Positions 29,751-58,300 of a stretch of 64,000 nucleotides of DNA are shown here, piece by piece. A program made the position numbers and the translations under genes. The notes beneath the pieces were generated by a model. The model did no database searches. It was not told the DNA's origin and worked only from the letters and a program-made list of their open reading frames with translations. Location of the stretch: assembly GCA_963575745.1 (NCBI GenBank), contig CAUYUJ010000034.1, forward strand, positions 1 through 64,000, written 5' to 3'. The DNA is from Prorocentrum cordatum. Its lineage: Eukaryota. Positions within the stretch are counted from its first letter, which is position 1, and every line of letters starts with the position of its first letter.

Positions 29751-32165
29751 GCACCTACTTTTTCAGTCGCAGCTCTGGTAGCGATCTCAGACGTCTCGAT
29801 ACTCTAGGCGAATGTTCCTGGTCGTCTCTCATTGAAGACTTTAGTCGCAGCTCTGGTGGCACACCGATCTCAGGCGCCTAGATACTTTAGACCAGCGTCT
29901 GTGATAATTTCCTGTCGATTGGCGCGCATCTCAGCTCCGTAGATTGTCTAGAGCTCGAAGTAAATCGAGAAAAAAAGAATCACCTCTTACAGAAAATTAC
30001 AGAGTGCGAATAGTTTTCGAATCACAGCTCTGGTAGCAGAATTGATGCTGCAAGCGAATATTCATAACCATGCACTGTCGATGGGTGTGAATCGCAGCCC
30101 CGTAGCTCGCCTACAGCACTAGTGAAGTAGAGAAACCAACATTCTCTCTCAAAAAGTAGAAGGGTACAAATAATTTGTTTGGTAACAGCTCTGGTAGCAT
30201 ACCGATCGGAGGCGTCTAGATACTTTATCCTGATGCATTCCTATCGATCGGCGTCCTTCCTAACTCTGTGGCTGATCTACAGACGATTGCGTAGAGGAAC
30301 AAACCTTCCTCTCTGAAAATTTGCAGCAGAGCCAGAGTTAAAGTTTGAATCGTAGCTCTGGTGGCAAACCGATCCCAGATGTCTCGACACTGTAGGCGAA
30401 TGTTCCTCAATTACTGTTGAACGCTATGCTTCCCAGCTCCACAGCTTGTCTGCTGCTCGAATTAAGTTGAGCAGCATTGCCACTTAAAAAGCATTACAGA
30501 TTGCACATAGCTTGCTTGGTTGCAGCTCTGGTAGCAGACCAATATCAGGCGTCTAGATACTGTAGACCAGCGTTCCTGATCATGTCCTGCCTGCTCCTGT
30601 GCCCAACAGCTCTGTAGACCAGCACCTGCCAAGATGACACTCAACCCGCGATCCAGCCTGAATGCTTTTCGCTAGTAAGGTCCACCCGATCGACCTGATA
30701 TCAAAATGGCGAGCGGAATAAGATCAAAGATGGGAGACAAAATAATAGAGCTCTAACGAATTGTTGAGTTTTGAGAACATAACTTTTAACCAACCAAAAC
30801 TGGGTGCCGGCAGTAAACCGTCAACCAGGCTACCGCCAGGGACCTCGTAGAGCTCCTGACTCACGTACAAGTGCTGTCGACGCGGGCAGTAAGATGCCTG
30901 GAATATCAGCTTGGAAGCTAGAGACATCTCTACTTTCTCTGAAAAAAATTTTGAACCTGGGACGGAAATGTCGCCGCTACAGCGCTCTCGATGCGGAAGG
31001 TAAGCTCCCTGGAACATCAGCTTGAAAACCGAAAGGAAGTCATTATTGGGAATTCTAACGGAGAGTCAGTTACAAATACTTTTCAATATTTGACCTGCTG
31101 GAGATCTACGAATATATTTTTTTTTTTTTAATAAAAAAAAAAAAAAAAAAAAAAAAAAAAAAAAAAAAAAAAAAAAAAAAAAAAAAAAAAAAAAAAAAAA
31201 AAAAAAAACGGGACATAAACCTCTTCGGTTGCAAATGAATTGCACTACAAACGGATCACTGAATTTCTCAACAACTTTTTTCAGATCGGTCTCTCGAAGT
31301 GAATAGATGGAAAGATTGCAGCTACAGCCCCGAGACGACTTTCATCAGCAAACGCAGCGTAATTGGATGCTCACTGGAAGAATCTTATAATTCGAAGCCG
31401 GTGATCGACTCTCTCTAAATCTTGCAAAAACAACATAACTTAAGTTTTCTCATCAACTTCAAGTTTTATTCCTCCACGTCTTATTCCACGGGCAGACGCA
31501 GCATAACCCATTAAACATGCAAAAATATTGGTTTTCAAAACTGGACGCGGGCGGAAAGCCGTCATGCTGGCTACCGCCGGGGACCCCGTAGAGCCCCCCA
31601 CGCCCCCATCCGACGCCATCGACGTGCTCCTGCTGCTCCTGCTGCTGCTGCTTCTGCTACTCCTCCTGCTGTTGCTCCTGCTGCTGCTCCTTCTGCTGCT
31701 CCTCCTGCTACTCCTCCTGCTGCTGCTCCTTCTGCTGTTCCTCTACTCCTCCTGATGTTGTTCCTGCTGCTTCTCCTCATTATGCTTATCCTGCTTATGC
31801 TCCTCCTTCTGCGCCGCCTCTTCCTCCTTCTGCCGCTCCTGCTGCTGCTGCTGCTCCTCATCATGATCCTCCTCCTCTCCTCCTCCTCTCCTTCTTCTTC
31901 TGATCCTCCTCCTCCTCACATTCAGAAATCTTGCGAAAACCGAAGAACTTAATTTTGTCATACCTATTTGAAGTCGGTCCCCCTACGTCGCTGCATCCTA
32001 TTATTGCAGCTACGGACCCCAGAAATTGGCAGGCAGACGCGGCATGACCCACTACACGTTAGGAACACACTGGTTCCCAAAACGAGTTGTCAAAACGCTC
32101 ACAATATCAAAAAAAACGACCCCAGGTCATCACACTGGAAGCTGGCGGCAAGCCGTCATCCTTGG

Positions 32166-55333: not shown

Positions 55334-58300
55334 CAACCTGGTCACCGCCGGGAACCTCGTAGAGCTCCTTGCACCCGTAAGGAAGCTCAGGATCAAAGCG
55401 GAGAGCTTCTGGGAGCTTTTCTAGAAAAACGTCAAATTGAGATTTTCCGGAGTCAACATGAAGTCAATTCCCGGAAGTGAACTGGCACTAAAATTGGCTC
55501 TAGAGAGCTGAGCTGCTGAGACAACGAAGTTGATATGCCAATGCTTGGCGTAAGAATCTGCTTTCTCAGAATGAATTGTCAAATATCTTTCAAATCTCAG
55601 CAAACCCGACCGAAATTTGTCACATTGTCCTTTCTGGTCGGGCCGGCCAATGGGAGCCGGCGGTAAACTGTCAACCAGGTTACCGCCGGGGCCCTCGTAG
55701 AGCTCTTTTCTCACACAGCGCTCCTCGGTAGACATGAAGGAAGCGTCTGGAGCAAGACCTGAAAAAAAACTCAAAAGATCACGTTTTTCTGTTTTTATCC
55801 AAAGTCGGTTCCCCCAGTTTTTTGATAGTAATACTGCAGCTACGGACCTGGGAATTTGACTGGCAGACGCGGCATTCCCCACTACAGGTGGGAAAAATCT
55901 GGTTGCTCAAAATAAATAATCAAATATCTTTCAAATTTCCGCAGAACCGACCCAAATTTACCACATCTTCTTTTCTCGCCGGGTCGACCAACTAGCTCCA
56001 CCCCGCGCCGGAACTGGGCGCCGGCGGTAAACCGTCAACCTTTCTTACCGCAGGGGGACTCGTAGAGCTTCCTGACCATGAATAGTGACGAAAGAGAACG
56101 AATAGTTCAGCCCGAGCGATTTCAGACCTCTCGATGCAACAGCCGAACGCCTCTGATGCTTCTGGATCGTTTTCTGTGCGTACGAGCTCTGTAGCTCTCC
56201 TACAGCCCAAGTTACGTGCGAAAATCGACAGCACCACTTAAGATGACTCGAACAATACGAACAGCTTCGCGAACCTAGCTCGAGTATCAGACCGAGTTCA
56301 GACCTCTGAATGCGACAGGCGGACGCGCCTGATCTTCCAACTCGATTCCTGTGATTACCAGCCCTGCAGCTCCCCTACAGCCCGAGTTAAGTGCAGAAAA
56401 CTGGCAGCACCTCGCCTGATGTCTCGAAATCGATTCCTGTGATTACCAGCCCTGTAGCCCCCTAGAGCCCGAGTTAAGTATAGAAAACTGACAGCACCTC
56501 TCAAGATCACTCAAACAATATGAATAGTTTCGCGAAACTAACTCGGGCAGCAGACCGAGTTCAGAGCTCTGGATTCAACAGACGAACGCGCCTGATGATT
56601 CTCTATCGATTTCTGTGAGTATGAGCTCTGTAGCTGTCCTATAGCTCGAGTTAAGTACAAAATACCGAGAGCGCGTAACAAGATAACTCGAAACGGCCGA
56701 TCCCGCCCGCGTGCTTTTTTGGCAGTAAAAGGTACCCGATCGAGCTCAGATCAAGAGGGCGAGCGGGAATAAGATCGAAAATCACGGGAAAAAATACTAG
56801 CTCTAACGAATCATTGAATTTCGAGAACAAAACTGGACGCCGGCGGTAAACTGTCAACCTTTCTTACCGCCGGGAGACTCGTAGAGCTTCCTGACCATAT
56901 ATAATGTCGAAAAAATTGCAGAGAACGAATAGTTATTCAGCCCGAGCGATTTCAGAGCTCTCGATGCAACAGCCGAACGCCTCTGATGCTTCTGGATTGT
57001 TTTATGTGCGCACGAGCTCTGTAGCTCTCCTACAGCCCGAGTTACGTGCGAAAACCGACAGCACCTCTCAAGATGACTCGAACAATAGGAATAGTTTCGC
57101 GAATCTAGCTCGAGTATCAGACCGAGTCCAGACCTCTCAATGCGACAGGCGGACGCGCCTGATGTCTCGAAATCGATTCCTGTGATTACCAGCCCTGTAG
57201 CCCCCCTACAGCCCGAGTTAAGTCCAGAAAACCGACGATGACTCGAACAATACGAATAGTTTCGAAGACCTAGCTGGGGCAGGAGACCAAGTTCCGAGCT
57301 CTGGATTCGACAGGCGGACACGCTCATACTTTGAAATCGATTTATGTGATTACTAGCCCTGTAGCCTCCCTGGAGCCCGAGGTAAGTGCAGAAAACCGAC
57401 AGCACATCTCGAGATGACTCGAAAAATACGAATAGTGTCGCAAACCTAGATCGGGCAGCAGACCGAGTTCAGAGCTCTACATTCAACAGACAAACGCGCC
57501 TTATCATTCTGAATCGATTTCTGAAAGTATCAGCTCTGTAGCTGTCCTGTAGCTCGAGTTAAGTACGAAAAACCGACAACACCTCACGAGATGACTCGAA
57601 AAGGCCGATCCCGCCTGCCTGCTTTTTGGCAGTAAAAAGTATCCGATTTGACGGCGAGCGGGAATAAGATCGAATATCATGGGAAGAAATACTGGAGCTC
57701 TAACGAGTTCTTGAATTTCGAGAACGAAATTTTCAACCGAGCAAAAGTCACCAAAAGGTCCGTCGATATTTTTCTTGCCAACTAGCTCTCCAGAGCGCCG
57801 GAACTGGCGCCGGCGGTGAACCGTCAACCTGGTCGCCGCCGGGAACCTCGTAGAGCTTCTTTCACGTATAAACGTGCTCAGAGTCCAAAGGCAGAGCTTC
57901 TGGTGGCATACGTCGAAAAATTCAACATTAAATTTTTTCATGTCGGAAAAAAGTTGGTTCCTCCAAGTGTTTCGATAGCAAAAGTCCGCCCAGAGAGCTC
58001 ATATTCAGATGCAGAGACCCTCATCGTCCACAGGTGCGAAAAATCTGGCTTCTCAAAATGAATTGTCGAATATCTTTCAAATCTTTGGAAACCCGACCAA
58101 AAGTTACCATATCTTCTTTTCTCACCGGGTCGACCAACTTAGCTCCACCCCGCGCCGGAATTCTTCTTAGCTCATCGATAACTGGCACCGGCGGTGAACC
58201 GTCAACCTGGTCTGCGGTCTGCGGGGCCCGATTCGAGCCCCCTTAGGGGGCAGGGCCAGCGGTAGGATTACCTACAGGCAACCTAAGCACTAACAGCGGA

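Follow-up and report, generated by a model that had tools for sequence, protein, structure and literature searches.

Site-specific long interspersed nuclear elements (LINEs) are known from a limited range of targets, which comprise rDNA, small RNA genes, spliced-leader genes, microsatellites, telomeres, and one cut-and-paste transposon (PMC4640811, PMC1919474, PMC6719617). The last of these, Tx1D of Xenopus laevis, is a multicopy transposon occupied at a fixed site by Tx1L, a LINE of the apurinic/apyrimidinic endonuclease (APE) type whose endonuclease reads ~10 bp around the nick (PMC1919474, PMC6719617), and a similar recognition length is given for the endonucleases of R1Bm and TRAS1 (PMC1919474, PMC6719617, PMC4640811). 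Moreover, independent LINE lineages may keep one exact site, as described for Utopia and Keno in U2 small nuclear RNA genes, with occasional tandem insertions in one target (PMC4640811). Here, we analyzed a stretch of 64,000 nucleotides from Prorocentrum cordatum (assembly GCA_963575745.1, contig CAUYUJ010000034.1, positions 1 to 64,000, designated the window), in which four insertions, L1 to L4, interrupt the same hairpin of a repeat resembling Helentrons and their relatives, the HINEs. We consider it likely that these insertions represent a site-specific clade of APE-type LINEs with a new class of target, the terminal hairpin of a Helentron-like repeat. The kind of LINE is an already known one, and the target is what is new.

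Compared with Tx1L, which targets a cut-and-paste transposon, the LINEs at this locus target the loop of the terminal hairpin in a Helentron/HINE-like element; in addition, the genome is of a protist type found in aquatic metagenomes, several LINE families with 27 to 50% identity share the site, and the protein has an RNase-H-like C-terminal region. The R1 clade (R1Bm in 28S rDNA and TRAS1/SART1 in telomeric repeats) is similar in its APE-fold endonuclease (those of R1Bm and TRAS1 were matched at E values of ~1e-10), in its fixed site and orientation within a multicopy target, in tandem reuse of the site, and in a pairing that the RNA tail may form with the nicked target. In contrast, the target here is a selfish repeat rather than a host gene or telomere, and the likeness is at the fold level only, with just 15 to 16% identity to the solved endonucleases. 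Utopia and Keno differ in targeting a host RNA gene and, in the case of Utopia, in having a restriction-like endonuclease. The full-text literature that was searched, which did not cover subscription-only articles and Repbase entries, contained no description of a pairing between a LINE and a Helentron hairpin, and the motif words printed in papers were only chance matches to primers. What is novel here is the target, the loop of a Helentron-like terminal hairpin, together with the sharing of this target by several deeply diverged LINE families.

Insertions at one position of a hairpin motif

The window consists of eukaryote-like repetitive DNA and carries, spread over 30.8 to 58.2 kb, a conserved motif of ~55 bp with a 10-bp stem and a 13-nt loop (AACCGTCAACC..), followed by CTCGTAGAGCT. 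Its core layout is ACTGG-nn-CCGGCGGTRA-ACCGTCAACC(N3-5)-TYACCGCCGG-nnnn-CTCGTAGAGCT, and 20 of the 24 copies are intact, while four are interrupted. At ≤3 mismatches, the left-half pattern CCGGCGGTRAACCGTCAACC gave 22 matches (0 expected from 100 shuffles) and the right half gave 17 (0 expected in shuffles). When up to 4 mismatches were allowed, 23 left halves were retrieved (20 on the + strand and 3 on the - strand), 19 of which run on into a right half and four of which are interrupted; an additional degenerate but intact copy occurs at 31540.

In each of the four interrupted motifs, the break lies 4 to 5 nt past CAACC, where the 3' tail of an element on the minus strand sets in, the junctions (marked by a slash) lying after 32165 (..GTCATCCTTGG/TTTTTGC), 39881 (..GTCAACCTTGG/TTTTGCGG), 53590 (..GTCAACCTGGTC/TTTTTGCG), and 58212 (..GTCAACCTGGTC/TGCGGTC). 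All 4 LINE-type 3' ends of the window therefore occupy the same motif position in the same orientation, and the LINE sense equals the host-element sense at every junction. These results agree with the original prediction, in which four insertions had been placed at one hairpin position with the 3' end at the left junction and in the sense of the host element. Two loop variants were hit in the window (CAACCTTGG/ and CAACCTGGTC/), and simple arithmetic with 24 motif positions in 64 kb gave odds of ~1e-12 for random insertions landing in this manner. Rfam and tRNA scans of the window yielded 0 matches, so that the target is no recognizable RNA gene, and an RNA-gene target was rejected.

The four inserts (Table 1) share no blastn similarity at E ≤ 1e-3, and are thus regarded as separate events. 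L1, L2, and L4 are alike at the protein level only, with identities of 27 to 50%, or 31 to 50% in blocks: tblastn with L4 ORF2 (ORF, open reading frame) revealed 35% amino acid identity over 441 aa of the reverse transcriptase (RT) in L2, distributed over several frames, and 32 to 36% over the last ~320 aa in L1. Measured from the 5' side, L2 and L4 align at matching distances, so that the 5' junction of L4 is predicted within a few hundred bases past the window end. L4 is homologous over its whole length to a metagenome locus, L001. Of the four insertions originally described, L1, L2, and L4 encode a diverged LINE protein; L3, by way of correction, is not a coding LINE but a non-coding element with a LINE-type 3' untranslated region (UTR) and tail. 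Over 62 nt, L3 and L001 share 90% identity in their 3'UTRs, no protein similarity was found between L3 and any LINE part of L4, L1, L2, or L001, and Pfam searches of the L3 ORF and the L2 fragments gave no matches; L3 is a non-autonomous rider on the same LINE machinery. The four inserts all end in short tandem repeats of the (GACCGCA(AA))n type. In addition, the 3'UTRs of L3, L4, and L001 (window 53600 to 53720 and 58290 to 58440, - strand; L001 4730 to 4800) hold 3 to 5 copies of a small stem-loop word (ACAGCTTCGCTGT, CAGCTCCGCTGT, or CAGCTACGCTG), which they have in common although the remaining UTR sequence differs, and this word may be a recognition element of the RT.

In a window as repetitive as this one, with many local duplications, a single ancient insertion could in principle have been copied by segmental duplication of the array. 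However, the inserts are without nucleotide similarity while their host flanks are 70 to 88% alike, the left flanks belong to different host families, and both the tails and the loop variants differ among the inserts, so that we find this explanation hardly credible. That the LINEs are mutually diverged, and not copies of one event, had been proposed before, and the blastn result and the low protein identity bear this out.

The marks at the junctions are those of target-primed reverse transcription (TPRT), in which the + strand end ..CAACCTGGTC-3' served as the primer: the inserts have simple-repeat tails, L1 is 5' truncated, L3 is flanked by a 10-bp target-site duplication (TSD), and L2 is accompanied by a 5- to 6-bp deletion. 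The TSD of L3 is perfect, and host sequence is continuous on both sides of this insert. L2 likewise has host sequence on both flanks; after it, the host restarts at 45399 as (G)CCGGGAACTCGT.., and 5 to 6 nt, CTACC(G), are missing in comparison with the intact paralogue at 33950. That the missing right half of the hairpin reappears at 45399 and at 55334 to 55370, the latter with a 10-bp TSD, had been noted before, and both places were confirmed.

These flanks also bear on a different explanation, in which the LINE transcript would include the 32-nt half-hairpin and the short repeats would be dependants resembling short interspersed nuclear elements (SINEs), which copy the LINE tail. Consistent with such a shared 3' end, the same ~32 nt follow all four inserts, and L3 shows that non-autonomous elements borrow LINE 3'UTRs. 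Nevertheless, the TSD of L3 is loop sequence, with the other hairpin half and the host body at the L3 5' side, host sequence is present on both sides of L2, the 20 intact hairpins have no LINE tail between their halves, and the repeats lack retroposon features, showing inverted terminal repeats and T/T flanks instead. We therefore judge this explanation to be highly improbable; the half-hairpin as the LINE's own 3' end, which the original prediction had named as the result that would speak against it, is contradicted by the TSD and by the host continuity at two inserts.

Metagenomes were scanned with an alignment of the LINE C-terminal region, and one locus, L001, was retrieved. Its LINE ends in ..CGCAAACTCGCAAA, followed by AACCTGGTTG and then by CTCAAGGCCTTGCCGTGGGAAGCTC. 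The last 25 nt (CTCAAGGCCTTGCCGTGGGAAGCTC) match an internal stretch of the RT region of the upstream LINE at 25 of 25 positions and form the start of a 5'-truncated second LINE, while the 10 nt AACCTGGTTG differ from the LINE's own internal sequence at the equivalent place and are hence target sequence between two tandem LINEs. AACCTGGTTG is the reverse complement of CAACCAGGTT, which is the TSD predicted for the commonest loop variant, CCGTCAACCAGGTTACCGCC. L001 represents a fifth independent junction, and it suggests that the site is reusable when only the loop and the right arm are left. With L001 included, five of five junctions are cut 4 to 5 nt after CAACC (3 to 5 nt for the ambiguous junction of L001), and the junctions fall in three loop variants (TTGG, TGGTC, and AGGTT). 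Viral contigs contained 0 loci of the hairpin motif and 0 relatives of the LINE C-terminal alignment. In four public runs, k-mer depth was ~1e5 for the host motif and 20 to 500 for the LINE body (region 57750 to 59250), indicating that the host repeat is ~100 to 1000 times more abundant than the LINE; no RNA dataset was among the sequencing runs listed for the sequence.

The endonuclease may instead need only a short word, such as CAACCNGG, in which case the hairpin would be incidental and the repeat would merely supply most copies of the word. The bases beside the nick indeed vary (TTGG^, GGTC^, and GGTT^), only CAACCAGGTT and the right arm are left at the reused site in L001, and the known APE-type endonucleases read ~10 bp (PMC1919474). 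On the other hand, 11 other CAACCN(1-2)GG sites of the window are empty, whereas 4 of 14 are occupied in hairpins, a difference that is weak (P of ~0.1). Overall, we consider short-word specificity unlikely.

Table 1. Coordinates of the inserts, hairpin motifs, host elements, and other features of the window
Feature	Position	Strand	Description
L1, LINE copy	32166..33216	-	5'-truncated; C-terminal ~320 aa of ORF2 and 92-nt 3'UTR; true 5' limit between 33216 and 33470; tail ..GCAAAAA
L2, LINE copy	39882..45398	-	5.5 kb, degenerate, ORF in at least 5 pieces; tail (GACCGCAAA)2A
L3, non-coding LINE-dependent element	53591..55333	-	Tail CGCAAAAGACGCAAAAA
L4, LINE copy	58213..64000	-	Apparently intact, 5' side past the window end; 3'UTR 58213-58444; tail (GACCGCA)2
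L4 ORF2	58445..62713	-	1422 aa, uninterrupted; APE-fold endonuclease aa ~1-290, RT aa ~500-930, RNase-H-like C-terminal region aa ~1180-1422
L4 ORF1	62717..64000	-	At least 428 aa, open at the window end
Left half of hairpin at L1	32142..32165	+	Degenerate
Left half of hairpin at L2	39858..39881	+	Matching right half from 45399
TSD of L3, left copy	53581..53590	+	10 bp, CAACCTGGTC
TSD of L3, right copy	55334..55343	+	10 bp, then right half-hairpin ACCGCCGGGAACCTCGTAGAGCT and host body
Left half of hairpin at L4	58181..58212	+	ACTGGCA CCGGCGGTGA ACCGTCAACCTGGTC; last 32 nt of host element, body expected beyond the window
Intact hairpin motif (example)	52139..52186	+	Loop variant of L3 and L4 (CAACCTGGTC/ACC)
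Complete family A copy	51447..51848	+	402 bp, opposite to most copies: (T)ACCTCGTAGAGCTC ... GAGCTCTACGAAGT, 42 nt with hairpin, ..CACCAGT(T)
Array of related hairpin-bearing host elements	46600..58212	-	Mostly head-to-tail; 15 motifs on + and 3 inverted; L3 included
Only recognizable cellular gene	18146..19558	-	Intron-less 471-aa ORF; Methyltransf_16 (lysine-methyltransferase-like), E 1.3e-10, and glycosyltransferase family 25 (GT25), E 2.7e-7

The host repeat and its hairpin in a second organism

Copies of the repeat differ to the left of ACTGG, and the loop variant, the arm variant, and the right-hand body travel together, from which it follows that the hairpin as a whole is part of the right-hand unit and constitutes the 3' end of that unit on the minus strand. 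In family A, the unit begins with 5'-(T)ACCTCGTAGAGCTC and continues to GAGCTCTACGAGGT, after which 42 nt with the hairpin lead to the end, ..CGCCAGT-3'(T). The 14-bp 5' terminal repeat ACCTCGTAGAGCTC thus has its complement, GAGCTCTACGAGGT, inverted 42 nt from the 3' end, and the 10-bp stem (CCGGCGGTRA/TYACCGCCGG) is located 7 nt from the 3' end. In this family, a T was present before 4 of 4 readable 5' ends and after 3 of 3 readable 3' ends, which is a small sample, and neither a duplication flanking the complete copy of this family nor an empty site was found. Motif-bearing families other than A are without a copy of the 5' repeat, and the head-to-tail joints in the arrays run from ..CCAGT directly onto ACCTCG...

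Helentrons and HINEs (DINE-1 and relatives) are described as having terminal or subterminal inverted repeats of 12 to 15 bp, the 3' one 38 to 60 bp from the end, and a palindrome of 5 to 10 bp that is 8 to 35 bp away from the 3' terminus; TT as the target and tandem repeats are also listed (PMC4067079). The host repeat follows this layout, with the palindrome distance of 7 nt being just under the published range. It differs in that the 5' repeat is at the very end and not 2 to 4 nt in, in that many related units have no 5' repeat, in that the loop is unusually conserved, and in that no Rep, helicase, or endonuclease partner was present among the window ORFs scanned. The architecture suggests that the host repeat is Helentron/HINE-like, and, as no Rep/helicase gene was found in the window, it is this architecture on which the rolling-circle assignment is based. 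The host had been called an abundant, non-autonomous Helentron-like element at the outset, a view upheld by the published HINE layout and by the depth in the public runs. A canonical Helitron was rejected, because the ends are (T)ACCTCG... and ...CCAGT(T) and not 5'-TC ... CTRR-3' with A-T insertion. Between two hairpin-bearing units (31110 to 31210), a run of ~12 T is followed by one of ~85 A, which may be a poly(A) tail left by some other retroposed sequence, or else an artifact of assembly.

A motif scan of prokaryote genome records returned 7 loci, 5 of which were chance matches in GC-rich bacteria. The remaining two, L004 and L007, were on eukaryote-like contigs in one marine metagenome-assembled genome (MAG), G001, and two further such contigs were found in the same MAG. 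The four contigs (C80, C84, C99, and C118, with loci L004, L007, and L009 to L034) are full of the eukaryotic hairpin repeat, with 27 pattern matches versus 1 in the reversed control, and are probably mis-binned in this MAG, which is filed as a marine bacterium. They contain 28 motif copies, 27 of which are intact; a copy near position 646 of C99 (- strand) is cut right after CAACCTGGTTT and continues with AT-rich ACATGTGAATTTTCAAAAATC... In many of the MAG copies, the stem has changed to CGAGCGG/CCGCTCG, and the loop AACCGTCAACC is unchanged.

Stems were compared in an alignment of 30 copies, namely, the 20 intact copies of the window and 10 of the 28 from the MAG. Across these two organisms, 87.7% of the stem cells pair, compared with 26 to 58% in slid controls, and three stem pairs change on both sides (18 cells versus 5.4 in shuffles, with 0 of 500 shuffles as high), although these compensatory changes probably trace to only a few events. 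The loop AACCGTCAACC is nearly invariant across the aligned copies. This pattern of variation points to a hairpin under selection, and an invariant loop between covarying arms suggests a DNA hairpin that is recognized by a protein.

The LINE protein and other features of the window

L4 ORF2 matched RVT_1 in Pfam (E 4.5e-7, 30.2 bits versus a cutoff of 29.6), and a profile of this protein and four homologues matched human L1 ORF2p (8c8j; E 3.7e-7) and, at E values of 0.006 to 0.007, R2 proteins. Pfam revealed no endonuclease domain in ORF2, and phmmer against the sequences of the PDB gave 0 matches at E ≤ 1. An AlphaFold2 (AF2) model of ORF2 aa 1 to 330, calculated from a 12-row alignment with a predicted local distance difference test (pLDDT) score of 79.6, matched AP endonucleases (APE1 and ExoIII) and the endonucleases of R1Bm (2ei9 and 6a42) and TRAS1 (1wdu) in Foldseek, with E values of 5e-11 to 2e-9 and a probability of 1.0. 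Because of this modeled resemblance, L4 is assigned to the APE-type LINEs, and the RVT_1 domain, the profile match to L1 ORF2p, and the AP-endonuclease fold of the N-terminal model together sustain the initial classification of the inserts as a clade of APE-type retrotransposons without long terminal repeats. Four close homologues (34 to 52% identity) were present in metagenome-derived protein sets, and an exhaustive protein search gave 1883 matches at E ≤ 1e-3, only 14 of them at E ≤ 1e-30; the clade appears to be small and diverged. L4 ORF1 matched no Pfam family.

The presence of this domain has to be weighed against a structure- or lesion-driven origin of the insertions, in which the LINE would prime from pre-existing nicks, made, for example, by the Rep protein of the host element or by cleavage of an extruded cruciform, without any sequence-specific endonuclease activity at this site. 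LINEs are known to insert at DNA breaks independently of their endonuclease, the insertion site is at the border between the loop and the stem of a conserved hairpin, which in family A falls within an imperfect palindrome of ~70 nt, and the covariation described above is as expected of a protein-recognized hairpin. However, the APE-fold domain is well conserved in all full-length homologues, the regular 10-bp TSD implies two staggered nicks, and in L001 another LINE had already taken the place of the left arm when the site was reused, so that the hairpin could not form there. On this evidence, we regard such an origin as improbable and favor a LINE clade that is specific for the hairpin.

Two further observations concern the coding region. 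ORF1 and ORF2 of L4 lie in one frame, parted by a single TGA at 62714 to 62716 (- strand). L001, which is 58 to 64% identical, has the equivalent TGA at the homologous position (581 to 583), and in both this codon is followed by identical CGGTGCCCAGC. The endonuclease motif begins 8 codons past the TGA with no ATG between, and there is no other in-frame TGA in ~1850 codons; the arrangement suggests programmed read-through or reinitiation. The C-terminal region of ORF2 (aa ~1180 to 1422; 58448 to 59176, - strand) contains RNase-H-like motifs in permuted order, with GDSQ.., ..REGNDEAD.., and ..FDGG..G.G.. preceding T.TQAEL at the very end, and the same order is seen in the distant homologues P0007 and P0015. 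A profile gave weak RNase HI matches (E 0.18), and an AF2 model (243 aa, pLDDT 75.8) retrieved no RNase H by Foldseek, its top matches being poor ones to PelC (TM score of ~0.23). The last ~85 residues of the model align with the first ~70 of several RNase H1 structures at a Z score of only 4.2 to 4.6 (wide VIA-align comparison, Z ≤ 4.7). The region may be a circularly permuted RNase H.

The window also includes long tandem arrays at 5939 to 7845, 34565 to 36042, and 37468 to 37734, with long spurious ORFs on both strands. The first array has an extreme strand asymmetry (GC skew of 0.62 and AT skew of -0.77), while the other two have a period of roughly 80 bp.

Proposed integration mechanism and its meaning

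We propose that the LINE clade integrates by TPRT at a fixed position in the hairpin, which itself lies 7 nt from the host 3' end. As the sequence shows, the + strand of the window is nicked 4 to 5 nt on the 3' side of CAACC, the word of the loop that does not vary (..AACCGTCAACCTGGTC^ACCGCC..), the 3' end released in this way primes cDNA synthesis on LINE RNA with the tail (GACCGCA(AA))n, and a second nick 10 nt upstream produces the 10-bp duplication of L3. On the LINE strand, the 3' end of the element would accordingly be followed by the flank (N4-5)GGTTGACGGTTYACCGCCGG. The LINE's own APE endonuclease would read the invariant loop, over ~10 bp as in R1Bm, TRAS1, and Tx1L, and the nick is measured from the loop, 4 to 5 nt after CAACC, whatever the next bases. 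The abundant repeat may thereby provide a harmless and constantly renewed landing site, a "safe harbor," while each insertion would part the two arms of the host terminal hairpin and should disable that copy.

Several points weigh against a clade that is specific for this hairpin. Only five junctions are available, four of them in one window that was chosen because of them. The right junction of L1 is unreadable, since a complete motif with a different loop variant adjoins it at 33471, and L2 has a deletion in place of a TSD. Among contigs from the four public runs that map to 57750 to 59250, one spans the 58212 junction by only 29 nt, below the 31-nt rule, and no loose end at 58212 was seen among those listed, with 219 others outside the listing, so that these runs offer no decisive evidence on the junction. 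None of the 28 motif copies of the second organism holds a LINE, the LINE profile found no match in the MAG with these contigs, and the interruption on C99 is unrelated to the LINE, having neither a LINE-type tail nor a LINE protein match. The stability of the hairpin in single-stranded DNA is only moderate (z of -0.15 to -2.5). No Rep/helicase gene was found among the 13 + 44 window ORFs scanned, and L004 has only short ORFs. Finally, the short-word comparison is weak, and LINE copies may also reside at other kinds of site.

A site-specific LINE clade of this type would add the Helentron-like hairpin as a new class of niche and would be a second, independent example of a DNA transposon inhabited by a retrotransposon. 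Site-specific LINEs are natural models for programmable RNA-templated DNA insertion and show how selfish elements find harmless niches, and the clade described here would be a source of an APE-type endonuclease whose recognition site is new and long. At the same time, the loop AACCGTCAACC would be marked as the functionally important part of a hyper-abundant repeat. A more far-reaching idea, which we put forward only tentatively and consider doubtful, is that the LINE clade is an obligate hyperparasite of a rolling-circle transposon, its endonuclease having evolved to read the invariant loop AACCGTCAACC to which the replication protein of the Helentron-like element must bind as well, or the LINE priming at the nicks of that protein. 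Because LINE families with only 27 to 36% identity share the site and the hairpin is conserved, with compensatory changes, in a second organism, such a pairing of retrotransposon and DNA transposon would be old and coevolving. If so, new LINE targets would arise whenever the DNA element bursts, and each LINE insertion would disable one copy by splitting its terminal hairpin, which would naturally curb the repeat that is the most abundant in the genome.

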